A stretch of DNA of 17,126 nt from a virus (IMGVR_UViG_2778261418_000005:1-17126), one strand, 5' to 3'; shown: positions 1 to 17,126, counted from the stretch's first letter. Notes: generated from the letters alone by a model not told the origin. Made by a program: numbers and translations.

Positions 1-88
1 TTCCCTACAGAGTGGCTTTGATAATGGCTTATACCCTACACGGGATAACTTAACTGATATCCCTTTTAACGGATAAACGGAGCCAACA

Positions 89-331
89 ATGGCAGAGATT
101 ATTCCCATGACTGAAGAACAGAAATTCCAGTTAGAGATTTACAAACTGGTCATGAACCAGAACGCAGCCGCGGAGGAAGCATTTCAATTCATTGGCACTG
201 ACGAACTGAAGCTTGAGCTATTCAAAATTCACTTCCAGTCAGGTGGCGCTAATTCAGATATCACGATCCGCACATTCGAAGCGGTGCGTAAATCGAAGGA
301 AGCGTTAGACCTGTTCACTACCGGAGCATAA
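89..331 (+). CDS. Hypothetical small protein (80 aa) immediately upstream of the terminase genes
   Basis: Intact ORF with a GGAG Shine-Dalgarno at 79-82, 6 nt before the ATG at 89; same strand and tight spacing with the downstream terminase genes. No recognisable motif. I recall a similar small ORF at this position in P22-like phages, from memory only. Confidence 0.55.
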   Translation: MAEIIPMTEEQKFQLEIYKLVMNQNAAAEEAFQFIGTDELKLELFKIHFQSGGANSDITIRTFEAVRKSKEALDLFTTGA

Positions 332-410
332 ACATGGCAACTCAAGGGTTCGACAACCCATCCAAATTCCGCGATGAATGGGATAAGCAAGCAGAAGGGA
401 AATAATCAAT

Positions 411-899
411 ATGGCAGCACCAAAGGGCAACCGATTTTGGGAGGCCCGCAGTAGTCATGGGCGAAATCCTAAATTCGAATCGCCTGAGGCGCTGTGGGCT
501 GCTTGTTGTGAATACTTCGAGTGGGTGGAAGCTAACCCGCTATGGGAGATGAAGGCGTTCTCGTATCAGGGTGAAGTGATACAAGAGCCTATCGCCAAGA
601 TGCGAGCGATGACTATTACAGGCCTCACTCTGTTCATTGATGTGACGCTTGAAACATGGCGCACATATCGCCTGCGAGAAGATTTATCTGAAGTCGTTAC
701 GCGAGCAGAACAGGTCATCTACGACCAGAAATTCTCTGGCGCAGCCGCTGACCTTCTCAACGCTAACATCATCGCCCGTGATTTGGGCCTCAAAGAGCAG
801 TCGCAAGTTGAAGACGTGACACCTGATAAGGGAGATCGCGATAAGCGGCGCTCTCGTATCAAGGAGCTATTCAACCGTGGAACTGGACGCGATTCTTGA
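411..899 (+). CDS. Terminase small subunit (P22 gp3 equivalent), 162 aa
   Basis: A 162-aa ORF directly upstream of and overlapping the large terminase gene; size and sequence ([15 protein letters not shown]...) match my memory of P22 gp3; contains the pac-like sequence at codons ~89-97. Confidence 0.88.
678..703. other. Candidate pac site (headful packaging initiation sequence) inside the small terminase gene
   Basis: Sequence GAAGATTTATCTGAAGTCGTTACGCG at 678-703 matches my recollection of the P22 pac site, which lies within gene 3 at roughly this codon position. From memory, not database-verified. Confidence 0.55.
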
Positions 900-2376
900 T
901 AACCTGAGCGACGAAGAGCAAATCGAATTGCTCGAGCTACTCGAAGAAGAAGAGAACTACCGTAACACACACCTGCTATATGAATTTACGCCATACAGCA
1001 AACAGCGTGAGTTCATCGACGCCGGGCATGACTATCCAGAGCGATGTTTTATGGCTGGTAACCAGCTTGGTAAGTCATTTACCGGTGCTGCCGAAGTCGC
1101 GTTTCACCTTACAGGGCGTTATCCGGGCACAAAAGGCTATCCTGCTGATGGTAAATATGGCGGTGAGTGGAAAGGTAAGCGTTTCTATGAGCCTGTTGTC
1201 TTTTGGATTGGTGGCGAGACAAACGAGACTGTAACCAAAACGACTCAACGCATCCTGTGTGGTCGTATCGAAGAGAATGGTGAGCCAGGCTACGGTTCCA
1301 TACCGAAAGAAGACATCATTAGCTGGAAGAAGTCTCCTTTCTTTCCGAACCTTGTTGATCACCTTCTGGTTAAGCATCACACGGCTGATGGCGTTGAAGA
1401 TGGCATTTCAATCTGCTACTTCAAGCCATACTCGCAAGGCCGCGCTCGCTGGCAGGGTGACACAATCCACGGTGTGTGGTTTGACGAAGAGCCACCATAC
1501 AGCATTTATGGCGAAGGGCTTACCCGTACCAACAAATACGGGCAATTCTCAATTCTGACGTTTACCCCGCTGATGGGGATGTCTGACGTTGTTACCAAGT
1601 TCCTGAAGAATCCCAGCAAGTCGCAGAAAGTGGTCAACATGACCATCTATGACGCTGAGCACTACACAGACGAACAGAAAGAGCAAATCATCGCATCCTA
1701 TCCCGAGCATGAGAGAGAGGCGCGTGCTCGCGGTATTCCTACGATGGGTAGCGGTCGAATCTTCCAGATACCGGAAGAGACGATTAAGTGTCAGCCGTTC
1801 GAGTGTCCTGATCACTTCTACGTAATTGGCGGGATGGATTTCGGATGGGATCACCCACAGGCGCAAGTTCAGCTTTGGTGGGATAAGGACGCAGACACAA
1901 TCTACGTTTCACGCGTGTGGAAGGCGAAAGAAAAAACAGCCGTTCAGGCATGGGGAGCCGTTAAATCATGGGCGCATAAAGTGCCAACCGCATGGCCTCA
2001 TGACGGAAACCAGCATGAGAAGGGCGGCGGTGAGCAGCTCAAAGGGCAGTATGCCGACGCTGGTTTTATGATGTTGCAGGAGCATGCGACATGGCCTGAT
2101 GGCGGTAACGCTGTGGAGCCTGGCATCACTGAATTGCGCGACATGATGCTCGATGGTCGCTTCAAAGTATTCAACACCTGTGAGCCATTCTTTGAGGAGT
2201 TCCGCCTCTATCACCGTGATGAAAACGGGAAAATCGTCAAGCTTAACGACGACGTTCTCTCAGCCGTTCGCTATGCATACATGATGCGCCGCTTCGCAAA
2301 AATGATGCGCGACATCAAAAAACCAAAAGAGAAAAAGATACCAGCCCCAATCAGGCCCATCGCACGGAGAACTTAA
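877..2376 (+). CDS. Terminase large subunit (P22 gp2 equivalent), 499 aa
   Basis: A 499-aa ORF overlapping the end of the small terminase gene by 23 nt; Walker A-like motif AGNQLGKS near the N-terminus; size and N-terminal sequence ([37 protein letters not shown]) match my memory of P22 gp2. Confidence 0.9.
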
Positions 2377-4542
2377 ATGGCCGACGAAAACAGACTCAAT
2401 TCCATTCTGTGTAAGTTTGACGCGGACTGGATGGCGAGCGATGAAGCCAGAACCGAGGCGACAAATGACCTGTATTTTAGCCGAGTGTCGCAATGGGATG
2501 ACTGGCTATCAAACTACACTACCCTGCAATATCGCGGACAATTCGATGTTGTTCGCCCGGTGGTCAGGAAACTGGTCGCAGAGATGCGCCGGAACCCTAT
2601 CGACGTTCTCTTCCGACCCAAAGACGGCGCTAATCCTGATGCTGCCGATGTGCTGATGGGGATGTATCGTACTGATATGCGCCATAACACGGCAAAAATT
2701 GCCGTTAACGTTGGCGTTCGTGAGCAGATAGAGTCCGGCGTTGGTGCATGGCGTCTGGTCACGCAGTACGAAGACAACGATCCAACAAGCAACAATCAGG
2801 TAATTCGACGCCTGCCAATTCATGAAGCCTGCTCACACGTCATATGGGACGCCAACAGCAAGCAGATGGATAAGAGCGACGCTAAGCACTGCACGGTGAT
2901 TAACGCTTTGTCACGCAATGGCTGGAAAGAGTTCGCAGAGGATTACGGTATTGATCCGGATACCTTGCCATCTTTCCAGAATCCGAACGATACATGGCTG
3001 TTTCCGTGGGTATCGAATGATGTCGTCTACGTCGCTGAGTATTACGAGGTCGAAGAGAAGAAAGAGAAAGTATTCATCTACCGCGACCCACTGACAGGTG
3101 AGCCAGTCAGCTATTACCAGCAGGATATCAAAGACGTCATCGACGACCTGGCTAATCGTGGATTCATTAAGGTAGCAGAGCGTAAGGTGAAGCGTCGGCG
3201 TGTGTATAAGTCGATTATCACCTGCACGCAGATACTGAAAGACCGCGAGAAGATAGCCGGAGAGCATATTCCAATCGTTCCAGTGTATGGCGAATGGTCA
3301 TTCGCTGGTGACAAGGAGTGCTACGAAGGAGTGGTAAGGCTGACGAAAGACGGTCAACGCCTTCGTAACATGATCATGTCATTCAACGCCGATATTGTTG
3401 CTCGTTCACCGAAGAAGAAACCGACCTTCTTCCCTGAGCAAATCGAAGGCTACGAATACATGTACGGTGGAAATGATGACTATCCGTACTATCTGCAGAA
3501 CAGGACCGATGAAAACGGTAACGACCTGCCGATTGGTCCAATCTCCTACATGGAAAACCCTGAAGTGCCGCAAGCCAACGCTTATATGCTTGAGGCTGCC
3601 ACCAACGCAGTGAAAGAGGTGGCTAGTCTTGGTGTGGATGCGCAGGCAGCAAACTCTCAGGTCGCTTTCGATACCGTCAATCAACTGAACATGCGGGCAG
3701 ACCTTGAGACATACGTGTTTCAGGATAACCTGGCTACCGCAATGCGACGTGATGGCGAGATTTATGCCTCAATGGTCAACGATATTTATGACGTTCCTCG
3801 TCATGTAACGCTGACACTTGAAGATGGAAGCGAGAAAGACGTTCAACTCTATGCGCAAGTTGTCGATTACCAGTCCGGCAATGTGGTCACACTCAACGAC
3901 ATTCGCGGTCGCTATGAGTGCTATACAGACGTCGGACCATCCTTCCAGAGTATGAAGGAACAGAATCGCGCAGAGATTCAGGAGTTGCTAACCAAGGTTC
4001 CGCAAGGTACTCCAGAGTTCCAGATGCTGATGCTGCAATACTTCACGCTGCTTGACGGTAAAGGCGTCGAGATGATGCGAGAGTACGCGAACAAGCAACT
4101 GGTGATGATGGGGCTGAAGAAACCAGAAACACCTGAAGAGATGGAGATGGTACAGCAGGCTCAACAGCAGCCGCAGCAGCCATCAGCAGAGCAAATTCAG
4201 GCGCAGGGCATTCTTCTGCAAGGTCAGGCTGAATTGCTCAAGGCAGAGAACCAACAGGCGCAGATTCAGGTTGAAGCCGCCAAGGTTGAAGCCCAAAACC
4301 AACTCAACGCCGCGAAGATTGCAGAAATCTTCAACAATATGGACCTCGACAAGCAGGCAGAACTGCGTGAGTACCTCAAGCTCGTAGGTCAATTCCAGCA
4401 ACAGCGCAGCAAAGATGCTCGTGCTAACGCTGAGCTGCTTCTTAAAGATGCAGACCAGACTCATTCACAACGCATGGATTTCGCGAATCTTATGCGTCAA
4501 GTTCAAATCCCCTCCGGCGGAGTAGCCGAGACACCTCAATAA
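2377..4542 (+). CDS. Portal protein (P22 gp1 equivalent), 721 aa
   Basis: A 721-aa ORF starting immediately after the large terminase stop (TAA at 2374-2376, ATG at 2377); size and position are those of a P22-type portal; long C-terminal Q/A/E-rich predicted helix typical of the P22 portal C-terminal barrel. Confidence 0.9.
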
Positions 4543-4555
4543 GAGAGAGTTAATC

Positions 4556-5467
4556 ATGGACCAAACCACCGACATTCAGGCTTCTGAAGAATTAACCCTG
4601 CCCGGCAATCATGCAGCGGCATCTGCTGATGGCTTAGTTGTCGATAATGCCAACGACAACGCAGGTCAGGAAGAAGGCTTCGAGATTGTCCTGAAAGACG
4701 ATGAGAAACCAAAACAAGACCCGGCAACTAATGCTGAATTTGCCCGTCGCCGCATCGAACGCAAACGCCAGCGTGAGCTTGAGCAGCAGATGGAAGCGGT
4801 TAAGCGTGGAGAGTTGCCGGAGCACCTGCGGGTGAGTCCTGAGTTACCAAAACAACCAGACCCTAACGATTATCTTTCCGAAGACGCACTGGCTAAGTAC
4901 GACTATGACCAGGGCCGCGCACTGGCTGCCTTCCAGCAGGCAAACAGTGAATGGCAGATCAAGGCTATGGACGCACGAAGCCAGGCTGTCGCCGAGCAGG
5001 GGCGAAAAACTCAGGAGTTCACCCAGCAATCAGCGCAATACGTCGAGGCAGCCCGTAAGCACTACGACGCAGCGGAAAAGCTCAACATCCCTGACTATCA
5101 GGAGAAAGAGGATGCATTCATGCAATTGGTGCCGCCAGCAGTCGGTGCCGATATCATGCGTCTCTTCCCGGAGAAATCCGCTGCTCTCATGTATCACCTT
5201 GGTGCTAATCCTGAGAAAACACGCCAGTTGCTGGCGATGGACGGGCAATCCGCGCTGATTGAACTCACTCGACTGTCAGAACGTTTAACTCTCAAGCCTC
5301 GAGCCAAGCCTGTTTCAGAAGCCCCGTTACCTGATGAACCCATTCAGGGACACGCTGTTGCTGCAAATATCTCTGCGATTGAAAAGCAGATGGAAGCGGC
5401 AGCAAACAAAGGGGATGTAGAGACATACCGCAAGCTCAAGGCGCAACTGAATAAAGGAATTCGATAA
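4556..5467 (+). CDS. Scaffolding protein (P22 gp8 equivalent), 303 aa
   Basis: A 303-aa ORF between portal and coat; highly charged and helical in composition (E/K/R/A/Q-rich); stop overlaps the coat start (TAATG at 5465-5469). Confidence 0.88.
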
Positions 5468-6762
5468 TGGCATTAAATGAAGGTCAACTGGTCACGTATG
5501 CTCTGGATGAAATCATCGAAACCGTCCAGAACCTGACGCCAATGGCGTCCAAAGTGACAAAATACACCCCTCCGGCAGAATCCATGCAGCGTTCAAGCAA
5601 CACCGTGTGGATGCCTGTTGAGCAGGAAGCGCCAACCCAGACTGGCTGGGATTTAACTGGCAAAGCAACCGGGATTCTGGAACTCTCCGTGAAATGCAAC
5701 ATGGGCGATCCGGATAACGATTTCTTCGAGCTTCGTGCAGATGACCTGCGTGATGAGCGTTCTTACCGTCGCCGCATCCAGGCATCCGCCAAAAAATTGG
5801 CGAATAACATTGAGTCAGCAATTGCCAAACAGGCAACCGAAATGGGCTCACTTGTTGTTCACGATACCCGCGCAATTGGTCCATCTACTGGCCTGTCTGG
5901 CTGGGATTTTGTGTCTGATGCAGAGCGACTGATGTTCTCCCGCGAACTCAACCGCGACATGGGAATCAGTTACTTCCTGAACCCTGACGATTACCGCAAA
6001 GCAGGCCGCAACCTGGTAGATGGTGACATCTTTGGGCGCGTTCCTGAAGAAGCGTATCGTAACGGTACTATTCAGCGTCAGATTGCTGGCTTTGATGAAA
6101 TTCTTCGCTCACCGAAACTTCCGGCAGTTACCAAGTCAACCGCTACTGGTGTAACTGTTTCTGGTGCGCAGAAGTTTAAGCCGCAGGCATACACCCTTGA
6201 TACCGATGGTAACAAAGAGAACGTCGACAACCGTGTTGCAACGGTGACCGTATCCTCAACCACCGGATTTAAGCGCGGCGACAAAATCAGCTTCACTGGT
6301 GTGAAATTCCTGTCTCAGATGGCGAAGAACGTGCTGACTGATGATGCTACTTTCTCAATCACCCGTGTGATCGATGGTACTCACATAGAAATCACGCCGA
6401 AGCCGATTGCGCTTGATGACGCTTCACTGACAAAAGAAGAGAAGGCTTACGCTAACGTAAACACCTCTCTTGCTGATACCACTCCGGTAAACGTTCTGAA
6501 CGTGGCAACAACCACCGCTAACGTGTTCTGGGCTGATGACTCAATCCGTCTGCTGTCTCAGCCGATCCCGGTAACCCATGAACTGTTTGCTGGCATGAAA
6601 ACGTCTTCCTTCAGCATTCCTGGTATTGGTGTTAACGGCATCTTCGCAACGCAGGGAGATATCAACACCCTGTCTGGTAAGTGCCGTATTGCTGTGTGGT
6701 ATTCAGCATGTGCTGTACGACCAGAGGCAATTGGTGTTGGTCTGCCTAACCAGACTGCGTGA
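5467..6762 (+). CDS. Major capsid (coat) protein (P22 gp5 equivalent), 431 aa
   Basis: A 431-aa ORF translationally coupled to the scaffold gene; size and position match the P22 coat protein; followed by a strong hairpin terminator. Confidence 0.9.
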
Positions 6763-6768
6763 TAACCA

Positions 6769-6793
6769 GAGGGAGCTTCGGCTCCCTTTTTTA
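6769..6793 (+). terminator. Intrinsic (rho-independent) terminator-like hairpin directly after the coat gene
   Basis: AGGGAGC-TTCG-GCTCCCT stem-loop (7-bp GC-rich stem, tetraloop) followed by TTTTTTA, starting 7 nt after the coat stop codon. Confidence 0.6.
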
Positions 6794-6806
6794 TCTGGAG
6801 ACAAGC

Positions 6807-7079
6807 ATGACACACATGATCTTTCGTCATGGCGACATGAAGAAGTGGAAAGGCGTTGGCTACGACTTTGAAATCGTGAAAGCCGAAGAGCTTCAGGAAT
6901 ATCTGGATGCTGGCTGGTTTTCACATCCTGATGACCTTTTGAAGGATGTTGCAGAGCCAGAGCCAGAGCCAGAGCCAGAGCAAGAGCCAGAGCAAGAGCC
7001 AGAGCAAGAAGAAAAACAGCGTAAAAAGCCTAGTCGAAAACCTAAGGCGGCAGCAGATGAACCTGACAACGAAGGGTGA
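6807..7079 (+). CDS. Hypothetical acidic protein with a tandem PE/QE repeat ([21 protein letters not shown]) and a basic C-terminal tail, about 90 aa
   Basis: ORF in the gap between coat and the gp4 equivalent; ATG at 6807 preceded by GGAG at 6797-6800; lies downstream of the coat terminator; 3' end overlaps the gp4-like start by 23 nt. The track ORF starts further upstream at 6759 (GTG), but that start would span the terminator hairpin. Confidence 0.45.
6954..7007. repeat. Hexanucleotide tandem repeat (GAGCCA/GAGCAA, 9 units)
   Basis: Direct reading: gagcca x4, then gagcaa/gagcca alternating; encodes the EP/EQ repeat in one frame and an SQ/SK repeat in the frame of the downstream gene. Confidence 0.9.
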
Positions 7080-7557
7080 TTTAGTTCTTGCGGCATTACG
7101 TAAGCTCGGTGTGGCATCAAATGCCACGTTAACCGATGTCGAACCGCAGTCTATGGAAGACGGCGTCAACGACCTTGAAATGATGATGGCTGAATGGCTT
7201 GGCGGTGATGCGTCACCAGGTATCAACGTTGGCTACATTTTCGCTGATGCAGATGTCGCTCCAGATCCGGGCGATGAGCACGGTTTATCAAATAACGCTA
7301 TCAATGCCGTCATTTTCAACCTTGCCTGCCGCATTGCTCCGGATTATGCGCTGGAAGCGTCTACAAAACTTATAACCACTGCCAGATACGGGAAAGAGCG
7401 ACTCGTCAAACTGTCTGCAATGGACAGAGCAAAAGCCGCTAAATGTAAGTCCGGTTATCCAAACCGTATGCCTGTTGGTAGCGGTAATCAGTTGGCGAAG
7501 TGGAACGGTTGGAATTACTTCCAGCGAAAGGAACCTTGCGATAACGGGAGCGAATAA
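7057..7557 (+). CDS. P22 gp4 equivalent (portal-associated head completion / tail adaptor protein), 166 aa
   Basis: Start chosen at the ATG at 7057 ([21 protein letters not shown]...), which gives 166 aa and matches my memory of the P22 gp4 N-terminus and length; AAGG at 7044-7047, 9 nt upstream. The track ORF extends upstream to 6946 through the repeat. Confidence 0.8.
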
Positions 7558-8975
7558 TGCCGATTCAGCAACTTCCGCTCATGAAAGGCGTCGGCAAAGA
7601 CTTCCGAAACGCCGACTATATCGACTATCTGCCAGTGAATATGCTGGCTACACCCAAAGAAATACTCAACAGCAGCGGATATCTTCGCTCATTCCCGGGC
7701 ATTGCCAAACGCTCTGATGTGAACGGCGTATCTCGCGGCGTCGAGTACAACATGGCGCAGAGTGCTGTTTATCGCGTGTGCGGGGGCAAGTTGTATAAGG
7801 GCGAAAGCGAAGTCGGTGATGTTGCCGGAAGTGGTCGTGTATCAATGGCTCATGGTCGGACATCACAGGCGGTAGGCGTTAATGGTCAACTGGTCGAGTA
7901 TCGTTATGATGGCACGGTTAAAACCGTCTCAAACTGGCCTACAGACAGCGGATTCACGCAGTATGAGTTAGGCTCAGTACGCGACATTACGCGCTTACGT
8001 GGGCGTTATGCGTGGTCAAAAGACGGCACTGATTCATGGTTTATCACTGACCTTGAAGACGAATCGCATCCTGACCGATACAGCGCACAATATCGCGCAG
8101 AATCGCAGCCTGACGGCATCATCGGCATCGGCACATGGCGAGACTTCATTGTCTGCTTTGGTTCATCGACGATTGAGTATTTCTCCCTGACTGGTGCAAC
8201 CACCGTTGGTGCTGCTTTGTATGTCGCACAGCCATCACTGATGGTGCAAAAAGGCATCGCCGGGACTTACTGCAAAACGCCGTTTGCTGATTCGTATGCA
8301 TTTATCAGCAATCCGGCAACAGGTGCGCCGTCTGTGTATATCATCGGCTCCGGTCAGGTATCACCAATCGCCAGCGCGAGCATTGAGAAAATCCTCCGCT
8401 CCTACACTGCTGATGAACTGGCTGATGGTGTGATGGAATCGCTGCGATTTGATGCTCATGAGTTGCTGATTATCCACCTTCCGCGCCATGTTCTCGTGTA
8501 CGACGCATCTTCAAGCGCCAATGGTCCGCAATGGTGTGTACTGAAAACAGGCCTGTATGACGATGTGTACCGCGCTATCGACTTCATTTACGAAGGCAAC
8601 CAAATAACGTGCGGCGATAAGCTTGAATCGATGACAGGGAAATTGCAGTTCGATATCAGCAGCCAGTACGACAAGCAACAGGAACACCTGCTGTTTACTC
8701 CGTTGTTCAAAGCAGATAACGCCAGAGTTTTCGACCTTGAAGTTGAGTCGTCAACTGGCGTTGCGCAGTATGCTGACCGCCTGTTCCTCTCTGCAACCAC
8801 TGACGGCATAAATTATGGGCGTGAGCAGATGATTGAGCAGAATGAACCGTTCGTTTACGACAAACGCGTTTTGTGGAAACGAGTAGGGCGCATCAGGAAA
8901 AACATTGGCTTCAAATTGCGCGTTATCACGAAGTCACCTGTCACTCTGTCTGGCTGCCAGATAAGGATTGAGTAA
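7557..8975 (+). CDS. P22 gp10 equivalent (head completion / tail hub protein), 472 aa
   Basis: A 472-aa ORF, the length I recall for P22 gp10; translationally coupled to the upstream gene (TAATG at 7555-7559); position after the gp4 equivalent. Confidence 0.85.
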
Positions 8976-9823
8976 TGGCGGATTCGAATCTCAATGTGCC
9001 GGTAATCATTCAGGCTACACGACTCGATACATCAGTCCTTCCACGCAATATCTTCTCGCAGTCATATCTGCTGTACGTTATTGCACAGGGTACTGATGTT
9101 GGTAACGTGGCGAACAAGGCCAACGAAGCAGGGCAGGGCGCTTATGACGCACAAGTCAGGAACGATGAGCAGGATGTGATTCTGGTCGATCACGAAATTC
9201 GACTGGCATCAGCTGAAGCGAAGATTCAGGACCACGAAACAAGGATCACTAACGCAGAATCGGCGATAGTCGGCCTTGATTCCCGATTAACGACAGCAGA
9301 AAACGATATTGATTATCTGACTGATGAAGTTATCGCCATTCAAAACACGCTTTCAGACCATGAAACGCGCATTGATGCTCTGGAGTATGCCACTACTCGC
9401 AAAAAGTCAGAGGTTGTTTACTCTGGCGTATCTGTAACCATCCCGACAGCGCCGACCAACCTTGTTAGCCTGCTGAAAACGCTCACGCCGTCATCCGGGA
9501 CGTTGGCACCATTCTTCGACACTGTTAACAACAAGATGGTTGTGTTCAACGAGAACAAAACCTTGTTCTTCAAGCTGTCGATCGTCGGGACGTGGCCCAG
9601 CGGAACCGCCAACAGGTCAATGCAGCTAACCTTTTCCGGCTCTGTTCCTGATACGCTGGTCAGCAGTCGTAATGCGGCGACAACAACCGACAACATCCTG
9701 TTAGTTACGTTCTTCAGCGTGGATAAAGACGGTTTTCTTGCCACAAATGGCAGTACGTTAACTATTCAGTCAAATGGGGCGGCGTTTACTGCCACAACCA
9801 TCAAGATAATCGCGGAGCAGTAA
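8975..9823 (+). CDS. Tail needle protein (P22 gp26 equivalent) with an extended C-terminal domain, 282 aa
   Basis: N-terminus [43 protein letters not shown] matches my memory of the P22 gp26 N-terminal tip; central heptad-like coiled coil; the C-terminal ~120 aa are S/T/N-rich and beta-like, and the protein is longer than the P22 needle. Confidence 0.85.
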
Positions 9824-10278
9824 TGATTCAGTTCAAACCAACGCGAAACATCGACTTGATCGAAGCAGTCGGAAATCACCCTGACATTATTGCCGGGAGC
9901 AACAACGGTGATGGATACGACTATAAACATGATTGCCGTTACTTTGAGGTGAACGTGCACGGGCAGTTCGGCGGCATTGTTTACTATCAGGAGATTCAGC
10001 CTTTGACCTTTGATTGCCACGCCATGTACCTGCCAGAGGTTCGTGGATTCAGCAAGGAAATCGGGCTGGCGTTCTGGCGATACATTCTGACTAACACCAC
10101 CGTTCAGTGCGTCACATCGTTCGCTGCGCGCAAATTCCGCCACGGTCAGATGTACTGCGCAATGATTGGCCTTAAGCGAGTAGGAACCATCAAGAAATAC
10201 TTCAAAGGCGTGGATGACGTGACTTTTTACAGCGCAACACGCGAAGAACTAATCGACTTCCTGAATCACGGGAGATAG
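9823..10278 (+). CDS. P22 gp14-position protein (head completion / ejection-associated), 151 aa
   Basis: Assigned by synteny only (between tail needle and ejection protein genes); TAATG coupling with the tail needle gene; no motif recognised. Confidence 0.6.
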   Translation: MIQFKPTRNIDLIEAVGNHPDIIAGSNNGDGYDYKHDCRYFEVNVHGQFGGIVYYQEIQPLTFDCHAMYLPEVRGFSKEIGLAFWRYILTNTTVQCVTSFAARKFRHGQMYCAMIGLKRVGTIKKYFKGVDDVTFYSATREELIDFLNHGR

Positions 10279-10280
10279 CC

Positions 10281-10973
10281 ATGTTATATGCATTTAAGCT
10301 GGGCAGAAAACTGCGCGGCGAGGAACCTTATTGCCCTGAAAAAGGCGGGAAAGGTGGCAGTTCTGATAAAAGCGCAAAGTATGCCGCAGAAGCCCAGAAG
10401 TATGCCGCAGACCTGCAAAATCAGCAGTTCAACACCATCATGAACAACCTGAAGCCGTTTACTCCTCTGGCTGATAAGTATGTCGGCAGCCTCGAGAACT
10501 TATCGTCTCTGGAAGGGCAAGGTCAGGCACTTAACCAGTATTACAACTCTCAGCAGTACAAAGATCTTGCTGGTCAGGCTCGCTATCAGAGTCTGGCGGC
10601 AGCGGAAGCAACAGGTGGATTGGGTTCCACTGCAACCGGTAATCAGTTAGCAACAATCGCACCAACGCTTGGTCAGCAATGGCTATCTGGTCAGATGAAC
10701 AACTACCAGAATCTGGCAAATATTGGTCTTGGCGCACTGCAAGGTCAGGCAAACGCCGGGCAAACATATGCCAACAATATGAGTCAGATTTCGCAGCAAA
10801 GTGCGGCTCTTGCAGCGGCAAATGCCAACAGACCATCAGCAATGCAATCTGCTATTGGCGGAGGTGCGTCTGGTGCTATTGCTGGGGCCGGACTTGCGAA
10901 ATTAATTGGTTCATCAACTCCGTGGGGGGCTGCGATCGGCGGCGGTCTTGGTCTGCTTGGCTCGTTGTTTTAA
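10281..10973 (+). CDS. Ejection (internal virion) protein, P22 gp7 equivalent, 230 aa
   Basis: A 230-aa ORF in the gp7 position; Q/N/A/G-rich with a glycine-rich hydrophobic C-terminus (GAIAGAGLAKLIG...GGGLGLLGSLF). Confidence 0.8.
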   Translation: MLYAFKLGRKLRGEEPYCPEKGGKGGSSDKSAKYAAEAQKYAADLQNQQFNTIMNNLKPFTPLADKYVGSLENLSSLEGQGQALNQYYNSQQYKDLAGQARYQSLAAAEATGGLGSTATGNQLATIAPTLGQQWLSGQMNNYQNLANIGLGALQGQANAGQTYANNMSQISQQSAALAAANANRPSAMQSAIGGGASGAIAGAGLAKLIGSSTPWGAAIGGGLGLLGSLF

Positions 10974-10983
10974 GGGGTAATCA

Positions 10984-12333
10984 ATGGCTACGTGGCAACA
11001 GGGTATTAATTCTGGTGGTTTTCTGGCTGGCATCGGTACGCAAAATGAGAATGCGCCAAAGGCAAGCGACATTAACGCAACGCTTGGTCTGATCCGCGAA
11101 AACAATGAACTGGCTCGCTCAGGTGCAAATAACATTGGTCTGACCGCGTTACGTGGTCTGGCTGGAGTTGCTGATATTTACAATCAGGAACAGCAACAGA
11201 AAGCGATTAGTGCGTTCAATAAGGTTCACGCTGATGCATGGGCTTCTGGTGATCCATCGGGACTATTTAAGTTTGCCCAGGAAAATCCAGCGTTTGTTGC
11301 ACAGGCACAACAGGCGTTTTCCGGTCTTAATGATCAGCAACGCAACGATATGGGCGATTTAGCCATGAGGGCTAACGTCGCTCTTTCTCAGGGACCGGAA
11401 GCCTACAGTAAATTCATTACTGACAACAAGGACAGGTTAAATCGCGTGGGGGCGAATGCTGACTGGATGATTCAGACAGGTATCCAGAATCCAGAGCAGC
11501 TATCACACATGCTGACTACTATGTCTCTCGGTGCGCTTGGACCAGAAAAGGCGTTTGCTGTTCAGGATAAGATGGTTGGTCGCCAGCAGGAGCAGCAAAG
11601 AATTAACGAAACCATTCGCAATAATGACATGACGAATGCGAGGGCTATTAGGGGGCAGGATCTTTCCTATAAGGCTCAAATGGCAAGACTGAATCACGAC
11701 AAGTATGTGTTTAAGCAGTCACAGGCGGCCCTTGAAAGAGCAGGACAACCTCAGGATATGGATGTTTTGTCTCTTAACTCACAGATAGCAGCGACGGGAA
11801 TTGATCCGCTAACCGGTAAAGCTGCAACGTCAGCCAGAATGTCTCAGGCTAAGAGATGGCTTGATGGCAACAATAATTACAACAATGCGTTGATTACTGG
11901 TGAGCGAGGGATAGAGAAAATAGATTCTTTGCTTGGTAAGAAGGAGCTTGAAGGTATCGGTCGCTTCGAAGGAAGAAATATAGATGGCTTCACAAGTGCT
12001 GAAGGGCTTGCAAACCGTAATGCGATAGAAGAATTAAAGTCGGGTGCGTTTGTCCAGAACGTGCAGACTATGCGAGGTATGGGTAGCCTCTCCAATGCTG
12101 AAGGACAAAAACTGGAAAACCTTATCGCGAAACTCGATATAACACAGCCTGAAGAGGTCGTCAGAAAACAGTTATCTGAAATCCGATCGCAATATTCTGT
12201 ATTTCAAAAGGTTGCAGCAAGGGAGGCTGAATCAATGGGATATAGTTCATCAGGTTATGACACATATGTTAGTGAGCGAAAATCAGGAAGCGACAGCAAT
12301 AAGTCCGGTTTCTCGTCTTTATGGGGTGATTAA
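10984..12333 (+). CDS. Ejection (internal virion) protein, P22 gp20 equivalent, 449 aa
   Basis: A 449-aa ORF in the gp20 position, same strand, 10-nt gap after the gp7 equivalent. Confidence 0.8.
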
Positions 12334-14492
12334 TGGCTAAAGCATGGAAAGATGTTATCGCTTCTCCACAGTATCAGGCGTTAACTGAAGAACAGAAAGC
12401 ACAGGCTCAAGCGCAATATTTTGATGAGGTTGTTGCCCCTAAGGCTGGTGACAAATGGGCTGAAGCAAGAGATCAGTTTTATGCAGCATACCCTCCGCAT
12501 CAGCAGCAGAAAGAAGAACCATCATTGATGCAACAAGCTGGCGATTGGCTCACAGGTGGTCAAAGTGCAGGGCAAATTGCAGAACAGGCTGGTCGTGGTC
12601 TGGTAAACATACCATTTGACGTATTGCAGGGTGGCGCAAGTCTGATTAATGCAATCAGCCAGGGGCTTGGTGGCCCCAAGGTTTTGGATGATGTTTATCG
12701 CCCTGTCGATCGACCGACAGACCGTTGGGCGCAAGCCGGTGAAACATTTGGTGGGTATCTCCTGCCAATTGGCACAGCGGCAAAAGCTGCTGGAGCGACA
12801 GCAAAGCTCGCAGGAGACATCGGTTCCGCAGGAAACATGATTGCAGGTTCTCTTGCTGATGCTGCAAATCAGGAGGGTGATTTTGCACAAAATGCTGCCA
12901 TTAACGGTGGTATCAATTTTGGTGCTCAAGGCGTTCTTTCAGGTGTCGGGCGCGTTATTGCGCCAAGGGTTTCACAGGCTCTTGGTGGTGCAGCACTGAA
13001 TTCTGCTAATGATGTTTCCAGGATGGCAAAGTCAGGTGCTGGGCGTCAGTCAATTGCCAGTCAGGCCGCTAATGTGTCCGAAGATGTAGCAAAAGCGGCT
13101 GAGTCTGCTGGAATTGATATAAACGCATTAACACCAGGAATGCGATCTGGAAGTCGTGGAATTGCACAAGCCGAAGGCGCATTGGCATCAACACCAGGAA
13201 TTGTTCAGGACGCCCATCAGGCAGCATTTAACGAAATATCATCAAAGTTAAGTCGAAACCTTGATGAATTTGGGGCCGCATCTGGAACGGCATCAGAAAA
13301 AAGTGCGGCTATAAAACAAAGGATTCTTCAAAATCTTGATCAGATGAAGGATGCCGAGCGCGCGGCATGGGATGACGTGCGGTCAACAATGCCAAATCAA
13401 AAAGCAAGAATGCTAAATGGTAATGCCGTTATTCAGGCAGAGCGATCTGCCGGCATACCGCTTACTCCTGAAATGAAACAGTTTGTTCAGGCAAACAATC
13501 AAGGTGGAGTAACATTTGATGGCATGAAAGCATGGAGAGCGAAATTTGCTGATGCGGAGCAAAAATATAAGCGTAGCGGAGAGGCAAATGCGGCAAGGAG
13601 AGCAGGGGAAATACGCCGGGCAATTACTGATGATATGCGCACAATGGCGGAAAACGGCGGATTTCTTGATGACTGGCAAAAAGCTAATGATCTGTCTAAA
13701 GCGAGGTTATCAGCACAAGAGAGTGCAGAGTCTGTTTTCGGGCGTGATTTGGCAACAGATGCACTGATTACGAATGGAGTAAAATCCCTTCAATCATCGT
13801 CAGCTAAAGGTCTTAATGGTCCTGCTGGATTCCATTCTATGATCCGCGCTCTGCCAGAATCAGAGCGTGTTCCTGCTATATCATCAATGTTGAAGGATGC
13901 CATCTCGCATGGTGTACGTGGTGGCAAAGCTGATGCAGCAGGAATTAACCATATCGCAGAGATACTCACTCCACAAAATGTAAAAGCCATTAGCCGATAT
14001 TCCTCAGAGCTTGGAAGAATTGCTGATGCATATGGCACTCTTGCAAGAGCAGCAGTGAAACCTCAGCAGTATATTGAAAGAACAGGGAGAACTGCCAATG
14101 TACTACGCGATCTGGATGCCGGTTTATCCAACATCACATCAGCAGTGTTAAATGCAATTGCCAACTCAACATCAGGTGCCATTGTTGGTGGCGCTGGAGG
14201 GGGCATTGCAGGCGCTGCCGTGGGTGCTTTAGTTGGCGCTGGGTTAAAAGGCGCTGTATCTAAAATTGCCACCACACGTAGTGGTCGATATGCGATAGAG
14301 AAAGCTGTTCAGGAAGCCACCAAAGCAGTAAGAGCTGGCGGAAGTAAAGAAGCATTAGCGGCGGCGGAACGCAGATTTATGGCAAATAAAGCCGCCGTAA
14401 AAGCAATACGTGATGCAGTTGGAAACGAAGAGTTCAATCGCTTAGCGAGGGCTGGCATTGTAGCGTCGCTAAGCGGAATAGCACAGGAGTAA
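12333..14492 (+). CDS. Ejection (internal virion) protein, P22 gp16 equivalent, 719 aa
   Basis: A 719-aa ORF in the gp16 position; translationally coupled to the gp20 equivalent (TAATG at 12331-12335); glycine-zipper-like hydrophobic segment near the C-terminus ([27 protein letters not shown]). Confidence 0.8.
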
Positions 14493-14816
14493 TTAATCAT
14501 CCATGGATGGATTGAGCTTATCTCGTGTTGATGTGGCGATTTGCCCTACATTCCTAAGCCAAGATTTCAAATCCTTGATATTGTCATTGATTTCATGAAT
14601 ATCTTCTTTTTTTAGTCTGTTAATATTATTCTCAATAATTTCAATGGATTGCTCAATATCAGATATAGTGAATGATAGTTTGTTCTTCTCATCTTTTATT
14701 GAGTTTTTAAGTGCTTCGTTCTCAGTCTTGAGGTCAGATATCTTTTGTTTTAAAGATGCCAGTTGGTACTGAACCACAATGAGTGCGATAGCTATCACGA
14801 TAACTGTTGTATACAC
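14493..14816 (-). CDS. Hypothetical membrane-anchored coiled-coil protein, 107 aa (accessory/moron gene)
   Basis: GTG start at 14816 preceded by AAGGAGG with a 5-nt spacer; N-terminal hydrophobic helix (YTTVIVIAIALIVV) followed by a K/E/N/I-rich heptad-like segment; strongly AT-rich compared with the flanking structural genes; stop codon abuts the gp16-like stop (TAATTA at 14490-14495). Confidence 0.55.
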   Translation of the reverse strand: MYTTVIVIAIALIVVQYQLASLKQKISDLKTENEALKNSIKDEKNKLSFTISDIEQSIEIIENNINRLKKEDIHEINDNIKDLKSWLRNVGQIATSTRDKLNPSMDD

Positions 14817-14933
14817 ACCAACCTCCTTAGTTTTGAGCAGGATACCATGAAAAAAGTAAACATCTTTTGCCTACTTCACATTTGAATGGTTTGTCATTAG
14901 GATGTTTCCGGTTTTTTAAATATGGAAATTGAT

Positions 14934-15353
14934 ATGAAGAGGATTATTGGCGTCGTTGCTGGCGCTATGATGTTATCTGGGTGCGCAACTATTGTTGGTG
15001 ATGAAACGCAACTTGTGCAAGTGAACAGCAACCCTTCCGGTGCGAGCTTTAAGGTAAAAGATGAATCAGGCGTGATTGTTGCGCAAGGCAAGACTCCACA
15101 AGGAGTAACTCTTGCCAAGTCAGATGGTAGTTATTTTGGCAAAAAGAGCTACCAGATCACTATGGAAAAGGATGGGTACGAACCAGTTACCCTGCCAATC
15201 AAAGCCAATGCTAATGGTTGGTATATTGGTGGAAACCTTGTGTTTGGTGGGTTAATCGGTTGGCTTGCTGTTGATCCATTTAATGGTGGGATGTATACAT
15301 TGAAGCCAAAAGAGGCAAATGCATCTCTTATACCTTCTACGAAGCAAGATTAA
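14934..15353 (+). CDS. Putative lipoprotein with a PEGA-like domain and a glycine-rich C-terminal segment, 139 aa
   Basis: Signal peptide MKRIIGVVAGAMMLSGC with lipobox LSG-C; a following segment (NPSGASFKV...GKTP...KDGYEPV) resembles the PEGA domain pattern; C-terminal GWYIGGNLVFGGLIGWLAVDPFNGGMY. Start at 14934 preferred over the track's 14922. Confidence 0.7.
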   Translation: MKRIIGVVAGAMMLSGCATIVGDETQLVQVNSNPSGASFKVKDESGVIVAQGKTPQGVTLAKSDGSYFGKKSYQITMEKDGYEPVTLPIKANANGWYIGGNLVFGGLIGWLAVDPFNGGMYTLKPKEANASLIPSTKQD

Positions 15354-15358
15354 GAAAT

Positions 15359-15386
15359 GAAACCCACCGTCAGGTGGGTTTTTTAT
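15359..15386. terminator. Bidirectional intrinsic terminator between the convergent lipoprotein and peptidase genes
   Basis: AAACCCACC-GTCA-GGTGGGTTT hairpin with a T-run downstream on the + strand (TTTTTAT) and a T-rich run on the - strand (TTTCATTTCTT); lies between the stops at 15353 (+) and 15410 (-). Confidence 0.6.
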
Positions 15387-15409
15387 AAGGAGTAATCATG
15401 ATTTACCCA

Positions 15410-15946
15410 TCAAACAACCCACCAGTTTGCCTGATTGGATACCAGCCTTGCAGTTTTTATGGAATTAATTATGCCATGCTCAAGAGCCTTGTTAGCATCC
15501 AAAATGGTCGAGTCTGCTATCAGGGATGCCCACCTAATATGGGTTCCGATGTCGATATTGAACGCCTCAACGAAGCGATCAAGATCGTTATCGAGGCATT
15601 TCCCGTACTCTCTCAATCTGGCATGGTCGGCGGCTGGGGTGGCAAAGCCCCATAATAGAGGATGTAACAGGAATCTTGATAATGGGTTTGCGAAACGTTC
15701 TGAGCCAGCCAGGAAAACGATATTAGCTATGGATTCAACATTGCTTATGTTGTGAGTTCTAACGGTAACAGGGAGTGACTTAAGAAAGTTATACGCAGTA
15801 AAGCCAGCGGCAGTTTCCCCTCCCTGACTTGATATATGGATATTTAATTCAGTTGCGCCCTGAGATAATGCGGTGAGACAGTGGTTCTGAAGTTGCCCAA
15901 CAGTGGCAGTGTTAACGGGGCATAAGAAATGAATTGTGTGCAGCAT
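15410..15946 (-). CDS. Minimal ClpP-fold (peptidase S14-like) serine peptidase, 178 aa
   Basis: Collinear match to the ClpP core as I recall it: NIHISSQGGETAAGFTAYNFL against ClpP YINSPGGVITAGMSIYDTM; SIANIVFLAG against catalytic-Ser SMGAFLLTAG; LLHPL against MIHQP (His); a D-S-T segment near the ClpP Asp position; C-terminal HGIINSI against YGLVDSI. Start codon overlaps the stop of the upstream Mnt-like gene (TAATG). Confidence 0.7.
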   Translation of the reverse strand: MLHTIHFLCPVNTATVGQLQNHCLTALSQGATELNIHISSQGGETAAGFTAYNFLKSLPVTVRTHNISNVESIANIVFLAGSERFANPLSRFLLHPLLWGFATPAADHARLREYGKCLDNDLDRFVEAFNIDIGTHIRWASLIADSTILDANKALEHGIINSIKTARLVSNQANWWVV

Positions 15947-16182
15947 TATTTTTCATCCTTACCATACATGGTCTTTAGCGTCTCAAGCAGCGCCTCCCTG
16001 AATTTGTCAGCCTCTTTCTGAGCAAATTCATTGCTATTAAGCGATCTACCACAAACAGCATCTTCGATAATCTGTATTATTTCAGCATTCATGGAACGCT
16101 TGTTATGTTGCGCCCTAGCTTTAACCTTTGCCTTTAACTCTTTGGAAATTCTAATATTTATTTGCGGCTCTTCGCGTGACAT
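15946..16182 (-). CDS. mnt: Mnt-like ribbon-helix-helix repressor, 78 aa
   Basis: N-terminal RHH pattern (INIRISKELKAKVKARAQHNKRSMNAEIIQIIEDA) similar to my memory of P22 Mnt; divergent from the arc-ant genes as in P22 immI; GGAGG 4 nt upstream of the ATG. Confidence 0.82.
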   Translation of the reverse strand: MSREEPQINIRISKELKAKVKARAQHNKRSMNAEIIQIIEDAVCGRSLNSNEFAQKEADKFREALLETLKTMYGKDEK

Positions 16183-16234: not shown

Positions 16235-16243
16235 TGGTATAAC
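16215..16243 (+). promoter_or_regulatory. Candidate Pant promoter (rightward), overlapping Pmnt
   Basis: -35 TTGCAT (16215-16220), 17-bp spacer, TG-extended -10 TATAAC (16238-16243); about 28 nt upstream of the arc-like start. Confidence 0.45.
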
Positions 16244-16253
16244 GGTTATACCA
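16235..16253. promoter_or_regulatory. Perfect 19-bp palindromic operator candidate (Mnt-like operator)
   Basis: TGGTATAAC-G-GTTATACCA is exactly self-complementary around the central base; overlaps the candidate Pant -10 and start site, as the Mnt operator does in P22. Confidence 0.55.
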
Positions 16254-16270: not shown

Positions 16271-16444
16271 ATGATAGTCAAGTCAGACGCACCAAAGTAC
16301 CCTTTGCGCATCCCATTAGAGGTTAAGTTAGCAATCGAGAAGTCAGCGAAAGAAAATGGTCGCTCAATAAATACCGAGATGGTAATGCGGTTGGTGGATA
16401 GTTTAAGGCGGGATAGTTCTAAAGGTAATCTAGCAAAAAGTTGA
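16271..16444 (+). CDS. arc: Arc-like ribbon-helix-helix repressor, 57 aa
   Basis: [38 protein letters not shown] aligns in length and pattern with my memory of P22 Arc (MKGMSKMPQFNLRWPREVLDLVRKVAEENGRSVNSEIY); GGAGG at 16262-16266; directly upstream of ant. Confidence 0.8.
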
Positions 16445-16507
16445 AGCCCCAACTGCGGGAACAGTCAGGGCTTCGGTTGTCAGTAAATCCGTGGAGAAAA
16501 ACCAACA
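16433..16507 (-). ncRNA. Candidate sar-like antisense small RNA covering the ant ribosome-binding site and start codon
   Basis: On the - strand: a TATACT -10 element (16513-16518) inside the ant 5' end, then about 70 nt downstream a hairpin (16443-16474) followed by a T-run (AACTTTTTGCTA). The size and placement parallel the roughly 69-nt sar RNA of P22. Promoter -35 is weak; ends are approximate. Confidence 0.4.
16443..16474 (-). terminator. Hairpin acting as a terminator on the - strand only (arc-ant intercistronic region)
   Basis: GAAGCCC...GGGCTTC stem with an inner ACTG/CAGT stem; followed by a T-run only in the - orientation, so rightward arc-ant transcription would read through. Confidence 0.5.
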
Positions 16508-17126
16508 TGAATAGTATAGCAATTTTAGAAGCAGTGAACACCTCTTACGTACCATTCAACGGTCAGCAAATTATCACCGCCATGGCTGCCGGAGTTGCAT
16601 ATGTTGCGATGAAGCCAATCGTTGAAAACCTTGGAATGAGCTGGTCAACGCAGCAAACAAAACTCATGAAGCAGATTAGCAAATTCAACTGTGTTCATAT
16701 GAACATGGTTGCTGCTGATGGGAAGCTTCGTAAGTTACTCTGCCTTCCTTTGAAGAAGTTAAATGGATGGCTGTTCAGCATCAACCCTGAGAAAGTTCGT
16801 GCTGACATCCGTGATAAACTTATTCAGTACCAGGAAGAATGCTTTACTGTGCTGCATGACTACTGGACGAAGGGAAAGGCAGAAAATGCACGTAAGAAAA
16901 CATCTGTTGATGACAGGACTCCGCTTCGTGATGCTGTAAATATGCTGGTCAGCAAAAAGCATCTAATGTACCCAGAAGCTTATGCAATGATTCATCAGCG
17001 TTTCAATGTGGAAAGTATTGAAGAGCTTGATGCATCTCAGATACCGAAAGCCGTAGAGTACATCCACAGGGTAGTGCTTGAAGGTGAGTTCATTGGCAAA
17101 CAAGAGAAGAAAACCAACGAGCTTTC
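16507..17126 (+). CDS. ant: Antirepressor Ant, N-terminal part (ORF continues past the window end)
   Basis: Open frame from the ATG at 16507 to the window end with no stop (206 codons); N-terminus [21 protein letters not shown] matches my memory of P22 Ant; located immediately after arc as in P22 immI. Confidence 0.8.

Follow-up and report, generated by a model that had tools for sequence, protein, structure and literature searches.

We analysed the interval 14493-16182 of a 17,126-nt stretch of viral DNA (IMGVR_UViG_2778261418_000005, called here the window), in which the late operon of a P22-like phage runs into the immunity I (immI) region. The interval begins right after the homolog of gene 16, which is the last of the ejection-protein genes, and its right end takes in mnt itself. 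Three genes lie between gene 16 and mnt, and the open reading frames (ORFs) were found in the convergent/divergent layout given in a preliminary description of this DNA. The first is an hkcB-like gene encoding 107 amino acids (aa) on the minus strand (14493-14816), which abuts the gene 16 stop codon without any spacer. The second, on the plus strand, encodes a 139-aa lipoprotein (14934-15353; the mechanical ORF spans 14922-15353 and the homologs start at ATG 14934) and is preceded by a candidate promoter-like site (TTCACA-17-TAGGAT, 14875-14903, plus strand) that matched the consensus at 9/12 positions in a scan. The third, on the minus strand, encodes a 178-aa ClpP-like protein (15410-15946). 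We refer to the places of the lipoprotein gene and of the ClpP-like gene as slot A and slot B; they meet at an intrinsic terminator hairpin (15359-15386). Next to slot B lies mnt (15946-16182, minus strand), the first gene of the leftward Pmnt operon, which encodes a 78-aa ribbon-helix-helix repressor (Pfam Arc, 48.9 bits). Read from left to right, gene 16 points rightward, the hkcB-like gene leftward, the promoter-like site and slot A rightward up to the terminator, and slot B and mnt leftward from Pmnt, with arc, sar and ant beyond the divergent Pant.

Beyond mnt, an inverted-repeat search returned a 17-bp perfect palindrome (GGTATAACGGTTATACC, 16236-16252) in the place that the Mnt operator takes in P22. 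It is followed by arc (16271-16444, plus strand; Pfam Arc, 46.8 bits), with a likely start at the ATG at 16271 behind GGAGG, by the sar antisense RNA (16439-16506, minus strand; Rfam RF00262, 95.6 bits versus a gathering score of 43, E-value 1.5e-20) and by ant (16507-17126, plus strand), which is cut by the window end and whose equivalent is annotated as antirepressor in epsilon34, ETEC1721 and APEC O1. The divergent mnt and arc-ant genes, together with sar and a palindromic operator, have the arrangement that defines an ant moron/immI region. On the left flank, the gene 16 ORF (12333-14492, plus strand) encodes a gene-16-type ejection (DNA transfer) protein of 719 aa that had no match in a Pfam scan; at the DNA level it was 96-98% identical to epsilon34 gene 13 and to the gene of the CUS-3 DNA transfer protein. 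The closest relatives of the window were E. coli prophages, first of all the ETEC1721 prophage (97.4% identity across 88% of the window), which holds the same cargo trio and in which ant is followed by a gene for a tailspike with a head-binding domain. Of the isolated phages, Louie and Dewey matched the structural part at ~95%.

Since mnt, arc, sar and ant are all present, and given the match with ETEC1721 and the published description of such loci, we identify the interval as the left arm of the "ant moron"/immI region, between genes 16 and 9, of a P22-like prophage (Lederbergvirus) of E. coli. A study of sixteen genomes gave the gene16-gene9 interval the name "ant moron" and distinguished ten types of it (Villafane et al. 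2008, PMC2629481), and its variability is therefore established knowledge. The claim that this position is a known variable site thus held: in P22, sieA, ORF59 and mnt lie here, all leftward. Regions of this kind are known, and the exact gene set of this one already occurs in a sequenced E. coli prophage. As a textbook variable site it adds little by itself.

The boundaries of the cargo could be placed by pairwise BLAST against relatives, which gave recurrent sharp breakpoints at 14847/14848, at ~15356 (the terminator) and at 16027, inside mnt. The epsilon34 genome matched 14201-15387 at 96% identity and then gave no match before 16437. EC.P3, phiv205-1, APEC O1, MS 21-1 and PhiR12_1 matched at ~98% from 15346 or 15363 to 16027, a stretch that runs from the terminator through the ClpP-like gene into the final 80 bp of mnt. 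A 34-bp block (14814-14847), recognised by alignment with the relatives, forms the left joint of slot A. It was 94-100% identical in EC.P3, phiv205-1, APEC O1 and MS 21-1, and in these genomes the leftward gene behind it is another one. This block contains the ribosome-binding site (AAGGAGG) and the leader of the leftward gene adjoining gene 16, and possibly an extended -10 element (TGGTATCCT, 14847-14839, minus strand), read by eye. Matching ended nearby in other relatives, at 14850 in SEN22, 14832 in CUS-3 and 14863 in HK620. At the joint between the two slots, the bidirectional terminator announced in the preliminary description was supported by the fold energies on both strands and by a terminator scan, which listed the same hairpin. 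The hairpin (15359-15382) plus its T-run had a folding energy of -16.2 kcal/mol on the plus strand and -14.2 kcal/mol on the minus strand, where the T-tract is weaker, with z-scores versus shuffled sequence of -4.2 and -4.0, respectively. The annotations of epsilon34 and HK620 also show a terminator at the corresponding point, labelled "bidirectional terminator" in HK620.

The annotated maps of the relatives showed how each place is filled. Beside gene 16, the leftward gene is an hkcB homolog in epsilon34, CUS-3, SEN22 and HK620 and a small unnamed gene in EC.P3, APEC O1 and MS 21-1. The rightward slot A holds the lipoprotein gene in the window, epsilon34 and a Salmonella prophage (L020), hkcC in HK620, genes for a 217-aa protein and a YcfA-like protein in SEN22, for a Panacea-domain protein and a 140-aa protein in EC.P3, for a 188-aa protein and a YafO toxin in APEC O1, and for a P63C-domain protein in MS 21-1. 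The leftward slot B, downstream of mnt, holds the ClpP-like gene in the window and five relatives, ORF59 and sieA in P22, and genes for 89-aa and 148-aa proteins in the Salmonella prophage L020; it is empty in epsilon34. As expected of a moron, the cargo is present, absent or replaced between the same flanking genes among the relatives. Among 50,697 phage records, 6 contained the ClpP-like protein, 4 the lipoprotein and 8 the hkcB-like protein, but no record held all three, in line with the earlier expectation that the gene set would differ across the P22-like group. No flanking direct repeats or insertion scars of note were found around the interval. The differing distributions and the sharp separate joints do not fit the one acquired island of the preliminary description, and indicate three cassettes instead. 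These cassettes are probably swapped by recombination at short conserved joints, namely the hkcB leader (14814-14847), the terminator (~15356-15387) and position 16027 in mnt. Such a structure of slots and joints would explain how cargo is exchanged without disturbing the late operon or immunity, and the joints give exact boundaries for engineering or for cargo mining.

The content of slot B deserves the closest attention. The ClpP-like protein passed the cutoff of Pfam CLP_protease (PF00574, family S14; 46.7 bits versus 20.2) and fell below the cutoffs of all clpP equivalog models of NCBIfam. Its best relative of solved structure was by far PpClpP1 of Pseudomonas plecoglossicida (PDB 9uxt; E-value 4e-35, ~40% identity), and the canonical ClpPs aligned at E-values of ~1e-8 or weaker. 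In the alignment with E. coli ClpP (query 32-167 versus 57-192), residue 32 corresponds to residue 57 of the mature E. coli protein; ~25 N-terminal residues are therefore missing, and with them the axial loops that dock ClpX/ClpA. Ser72 and His95 were invariant in the family alignment and correspond to S73 and H96 of PpClpP1. The Ser-His-Asp triad is incomplete, with Ser146 at the position of ClpP Asp171, in a column that is not conserved across the family and is occupied by Pro in PpClpP1. The truncated family comprised 524 clusters (50% identity) at E-values <= 1e-10, mostly of 180-190 aa. Judging from these alignments, the protein is an N-terminally truncated Ser-His orphan ClpP paralog of the PpClpP1 type.

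PpClpP1 forms a homo-tetradecamer with a pore of 42.7 Å, has a weak peptidase activity that needs Ser and His, does not bind ClpX and alone degrades no protein; together with the housekeeping ClpP2 it forms a heterocomplex that ClpX engages through the ClpP2 subunits (PMC12900304). In the case of Pseudomonas aeruginosa ClpP2, it was argued that paralogs of this kind serve as rheostats of ClpXP, since ClpX can cap a mixed particle on just one of its two sides (PMC13056064). Our full-text literature search returned no paper describing a prophage- or phage-encoded ClpP.

The position of the ClpP-like gene bears on its expression. Its ATG shares one base with the stop codon of mnt (TAATG, 15944-15948), and the annotations of ETEC1721, EC.P3, phiv205-1, APEC O1, MS 21-1 and PhiR12_1 show the two genes overlapping by 1 nt in the same way; the overlap also occurs in Pectobacterium, with a ClpP-like protein 79% identical to that of the window. 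In P22 lysogens, Pmnt drives the synthesis of Mnt, which keeps ant silent. Given the overlap and the ensuing translational coupling with mnt, the ClpP-like gene is probably co-expressed from Pmnt, and would thus be made in lysogens. Expression from the prophage, which the preliminary description had proposed for the whole interval, is something we infer with a good case for the ClpP-like gene and a weaker one for the lipoprotein and hkcB-like genes.

Of 5,426 complete E. coli genomes, 128 carried the ClpP-like gene, which was found in several prophage contexts. In PhiR12_1, a lambda-like siphovirus, the whole ClpP-like/mnt/arc/ant unit lies between the tail genes L and K (locus positions 5048-7060). 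In another prophage (L014), a ClpP-like gene and then an Arc-family gene follow the tail gene L (9809-10414), where the locus ends; the same prophage carries a lipoprotein homolog between the tail chaperone and tape-measure genes. Homologs with 53-74% identity stand alone in lambdoid prophages of Klebsiella, E. coli, Citrobacter and Leclercia, in the gap that separates the lysis cassette from the terminase genes and antisense to both; in lambda, this gap holds the lysogen-expressed lipoprotein gene bor. Prophages of Chromobacterium, Pantoea and Proteus carry further homologs in their tail or early regions. The truncated ClpP family thus recurs at moron positions in unrelated types of prophages, and represents an under-studied cargo that is worth following up.

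Elsewhere, truncated ClpP genes are chromosomal, in about fifty Massilia species, where the gene looks near-universal, in genera related to Massilia, in many Pseudomonas and also at Stutzerimonas loci. Neighbourhoods in the family were judged from six representative loci; in the chromosomal ones inspected, the neighbours were metabolic, transport or housekeeping genes, without phage genes, and the ClpP-like gene never stood beside an AAA+ partner. A clustering of neighbours over 80 ClpP-like loci was discarded, being swamped by spurious ORFs in the high-GC Massilia genomes.

The reading that we favour, with moderate confidence, is that of a three-slot cargo site whose contents are exchanged at conserved joints and whose ClpP-like gene is expressed from Pmnt in lysogens. 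By homology with PpClpP1, the paralog would assemble into rings of seven subunits around a wide axial pore, would have Ser and His as its active site and would be unable to dock ClpX or ClpA itself. It may stack on the ring of the host ClpP and so tune host Clp proteolysis, and it would be made whenever Mnt is made, i.e., in the lysogen. The benefit could be phage exclusion or a stabilised lysogeny.

Several observations weigh against this reading or parts of it. The Pmnt hexamers, read by eye, match at 8/12 positions and were not among the hits of the promoter scan. The existence of chromosomal, non-phage members in Massilia and Pseudomonas implies that a phage-related role is not required. 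With ~40% identity to PpClpP1 and Ser instead of Pro at the third catalytic position, the biochemistry of the latter may not transfer. Searches with the model structure of the lipoprotein against solved structures and viral models returned generic beta-sandwich matches only, and neither the lipoprotein nor the ClpP-like protein had a match in a scan of PADLOC-DB 2.0. Finally, we know of no natural second ClpP in E. coli.

A broader proposal would be that enterobacterial temperate phages carry a dedicated, lysogen-expressed, gate-less ClpP subunit, placed in the Mnt operon in the case of the P22-like phages, that stacks on the host ring and re-tunes ClpXP/ClpAP. This proposal is tentative and we consider it rather doubtful. 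If it were true, one side of the particle might for instance be left open to the unfoldase, and lysogeny would be stabilised, or superinfecting phages that depend on Clp degradation or are sensitive to it would be blunted; lysogenic conversion would then include a class that targets host proteostasis and that has not been described before. Since the structure of a homolog has been solved and this homolog pairs with a housekeeping ClpP, the tuning of Clp proteolysis by a prophage is directly testable.

The other two genes have distributions of their own. The lipobox of the slot A protein was read from the sequence as L-S-G-C, with C21 invariant and G20 nearly invariant among 36 homologs, and the Ala at the +2 position suggests sorting to the outer membrane. 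The signal region is followed by a beta-sandwich (residues 29-97) and then by an invariant glycine-rich segment of the glycine-zipper kind (NGWYIGGN..FGG.IGW..VDPFNGGMY). The family is large, with 597 clusters, and homologs occur in siphovirus prophages of E. coli and Proteus, where they separate the tail chaperone genes from the tape-measure gene. The lipoprotein of the Salmonella prophage L020 has 98% identity to that of the window, and the adjacent hkcB just 60%, from which we conclude that the two genes assort independently. The idea of a co-evolving hkcB-lipoprotein pair was rejected on the same figures, and the neighbour of hkcB in Leclercia is unrelated to the lipoprotein. Nothing relevant on this family was found in the literature, and a role at the envelope, e.g., in cell-surface exclusion or in some other surface property, is a reasonable guess.

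The hkcB-like protein belongs to phrog_5962 (E-value 1.4e-58) and is 99% identical to epsilon34 gp14, 97% to CUS-3 hkcB and 56% to HK620 hkcB. Its family is narrow, with 21 clusters among 5.8 billion proteins, nearly all of 107 aa. In every context examined, the hkcB homologs were convergent with gene 16 and started one base past its stop, and this abutting position was kept at 53-60% identity, in Leclercia and Salmonella prophages. The protein has one strong hydrophobic segment (residues 1-22); the AlphaFold2 (AF2) model is a single helix over residues 2-101, with a predicted local distance difference test (pLDDT) score of 80, and the alignment is best conserved in a C-terminal motif (W..NVG.IATSTRDK.NPS). 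Matches in Pfam and NCBIfam (BicD, SMC, Rad50, spanin-like) were below the cutoffs, involved coiled coils and were treated as compositional; those in PADLOC (E-values of ~1e-3 or worse) involved long coiled-coil SMC-like regions and were considered noise. The sequence features point to a membrane protein with a coiled coil whose distribution is restricted to certain lineages and which behaves as a constant partner of one gene-16 lineage. As this partnership is kept down to 53% identity, hkcB does not look like recently acquired cargo, and for this gene the cargo reading of the preliminary description is not supported.

Among the alternatives to lysogen-expressed cassettes that act through Clp, the best placed is that the cargo consists of abortive-infection or toxin-antitoxin defence effectors, with a ClpP-like defence protease held in check by its co-expression with Mnt. 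In several relatives this region holds cargo of the toxin-antitoxin type: a YafO-family toxin and a partner encoded upstream of it in CUS-3 (locus positions 4040-5043) and APEC O1 (1950-2974), a Panacea/SocA-like protein with a 140-aa partner in EC.P3 (2878-3749) and a YcfA-like protein in SEN22 (3659-4513). This suggests that the site often holds toxin-antitoxin or defence modules, and the recurrence of the ClpP-like gene at classic moron positions, antisense to lytic operons and in many types of prophages, also speaks for this alternative. However, besides the lack of PADLOC matches for the two proteins, there is no conserved partner beside the ClpP-like gene outside the P22-like phages, the chromosomal orthologs of Massilia and Pseudomonas lie in housekeeping neighbourhoods, and the full-text searches on prophage-encoded ClpP and on ClpP combined with defence systems found nothing relevant. 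We regard defence effectors as an unlikely explanation of this cargo.

The preliminary description had instead proposed a single compositionally distinct island, horizontally acquired, replacing or supplementing superinfection exclusion of the SieA type. Its statement that this DNA is AT-richer than the structural genes was borne out: the GC content of 14493-15946 was 0.413 versus 0.498 for 1-14492, below the minimum (0.461) of windows of the same size in the structural region (mean 0.500, standard deviation 0.014), with a trough of 0.33 at 14551-14850. The DNA of mnt, arc and ant beyond the interval was similarly AT-rich (GC 0.423). We also scored synonymous-codon usage against the head and tail genes, holding each protein sequence fixed. 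The z-scores were -4.2 for the hkcB-like gene, -2.5 for the lipoprotein gene, -4.8 for the ClpP-like gene, -4.2 for mnt and -4.9 for arc, compared with -6.0 for gp20 (GC at third codon positions, GC3, of 0.43) and -7.8 for gp16 (GC3 of 0.33, or 0.326 to the third decimal). The ejection-protein genes gp20 and gp16 (10984-14492) thus depart from the codon usage of the head and tail genes more than any gene of the interval, and a compositional break lies near the gp7/gp20 boundary, at ~10984, ~3.5 kb upstream of 14493. Owing to this shift in gp20 and gp16 and to the AT-richness of mnt, arc and ant, composition fails to mark the edges of the interval. The compositional part of the earlier claim therefore stands as a difference from the head and tail genes in both GC content and codon usage, and falls as the signature of an island, with the shift starting at gp20 and continuing through mnt and arc.

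Other observations speak for an exclusion function at this place. The sieA gene of P22 is found at the same position, and SieA resides in the inner membrane, with the mutations that allow escape from it located in the C-terminal parts of gp16 and gp20 (PMC10883804). The hkcB-like membrane protein is always encoded against the 3' end of gene 16, and this linkage, beside the SieA-escape sites of gp16 and gp20, is suggestive by analogy. A tblastn search with P22 SieA (type A) found no homolog in the window (best E-value 1.8), so that something else could supply exclusion. A 199-aa protein of CUS-3 considered as a type of SieA showed no similarity to P22 SieA and was set aside. Against a single SieA-type island stand the cassettes with their differing distributions and separate joints, the codon shift that begins in gp20 and runs into mnt and arc, and the one membrane helix of the hkcB-like protein, unlike the multi-spanning SieA. 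It is solely the position that suggests a replacement of SieA-type functions, and we hold such an island to be distinctly improbable.

The close association with mnt raises the alternative that the ClpP-like peptidase is a fail-safe of immI, degrading leaked Ant or processing Mnt/Arc and so stabilising lysogeny. Mnt of the window was 35% identical to P22 Mnt over its full length, and the palindrome GGTATAACGGTTATACC aligned column for column with that of P22 and epsilon34 (AGGTCCACGGTGGACCT, also present in ETEC1721), although its sequence differs. From the different operator sequence and the level of Mnt identity, the immI specificity of this phage appears to differ from that of its closest relative. 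At 16027, inside mnt, the similarity to every ClpP-bearing relative stops at the same base. The ClpP-like gene is co-inherited with the sequence for the C-terminal third of Mnt, whereas exchange of the DNA-binding N-terminal part, of the operators and of arc takes place separately. The mechanical ORF of arc starts at TTG 16256; the ATG at 16271 aligns with the start of P22 arc, and Arc is therefore probably of 57 aa and not 62. The label "partition protein ATPase" carried by Mnt in the RefSeq records of epsilon34 and Emek is likely a mis-annotation.

Translational coupling, the co-inheritance of the 3' end of mnt up to 16027 and the transfer of the whole ClpP-mnt-arc-ant unit into PhiR12_1 would all agree with such a fail-safe. 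Yet the homologs with 53-74% identity stand alone in lambdoid prophages, with no ant or mnt nearby, epsilon34 and P22 run immI without a ClpP-like gene, and PpClpP1 alone degrades no protein (PMC12900304). We give a fail-safe of immI little credence.

The ClpP-like gene of phiv205-1 (locus positions 3797-4333) is annotated as "head maturation protease", very likely a mis-annotation. That the gene encodes a prohead (head-maturation) protease, either intact or as a remnant, is highly improbable: despite matches to phrog_94 ("head maturation protease", E-value 1.3e-21) and to NCBIfam Clp_rel_HeadMat (E-value 3e-13), it scored 50.1 against NCBIfam NF045542, whose cutoff is 120, it is matched much better by the cellular orphan paralog PpClpP1, it lies in the mnt operon, outside the head module and on the opposite strand, a Citrobacter prophage with a ClpP-like homolog has its own S78 prohead protease, and P22-type capsids mature without proteolysis.

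Exchangeable cassettes with a ClpP paralog made in lysogens thus remain the reading that we prefer, and they can be set beside several known systems. The nearest is the ant moron of the P22-like phages (P22, epsilon34, HK620, CUS-3). The window differs from it by the ClpP-like gene downstream of mnt, where P22 has ORF59 and sieA, by its operator sequence and by a combination of genes that is in no record of the phage collection. It shares with it the position, the mnt/arc/sar/ant genes, the terminator between rightward and leftward genes and the variable content; an hkcB homolog abutting gene 16 is common to the window, HK620, CUS-3 and epsilon34, and the lipoprotein gene is epsilon34 gene 15.

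For the ClpP-like protein, the closest known system is PpClpP1. The two proteins, both of ~180 aa, align over 172 residues, both lack the ~25 N-terminal residues, and both keep the Ser and the His with a non-acidic residue at the Asp position, Pro in PpClpP1 and Ser146 here. PpClpP1 is chromosomal, whereas the present gene is prophage-borne and coupled to a repressor gene; the oligomeric state, the peptidase activity and the pairing with a housekeeping ClpP are established for PpClpP1 alone and would be predictions for the present protein. The alternative ClpP paralogs, such as P. aeruginosa ClpP2 and the ClpP1P2 systems of Listeria and Mycobacterium, resemble it as second ClpP-type subunits encoded away from clpX, although P. 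aeruginosa ClpP2 aligned far more weakly than PpClpP1 (PDB 7m1l, E-value 6.7e-4).

P22 SieA, which is expressed from the prophage and located in the membrane (PMC10883804), resembles the predicted membrane protein of the hkcB-like gene in being encoded leftward between gene 16 and mnt, but has 164 aa and several membrane helices versus one. The lipoprotein can presumably be likened to the lipoprotein morons of prophages and phages, lambda Bor, Cor of phi80/N15 and T5 Llp. It differs from them in fold and length, and the similarity is confined to the signal peptide (phrog_1119, Cor, residues 5-24, E-value 0.0036). What it has in common with these morons is a small gene with a terminator and a candidate promoter-like site of its own, lying among late genes, and homologs in the tail operons of siphoviruses.

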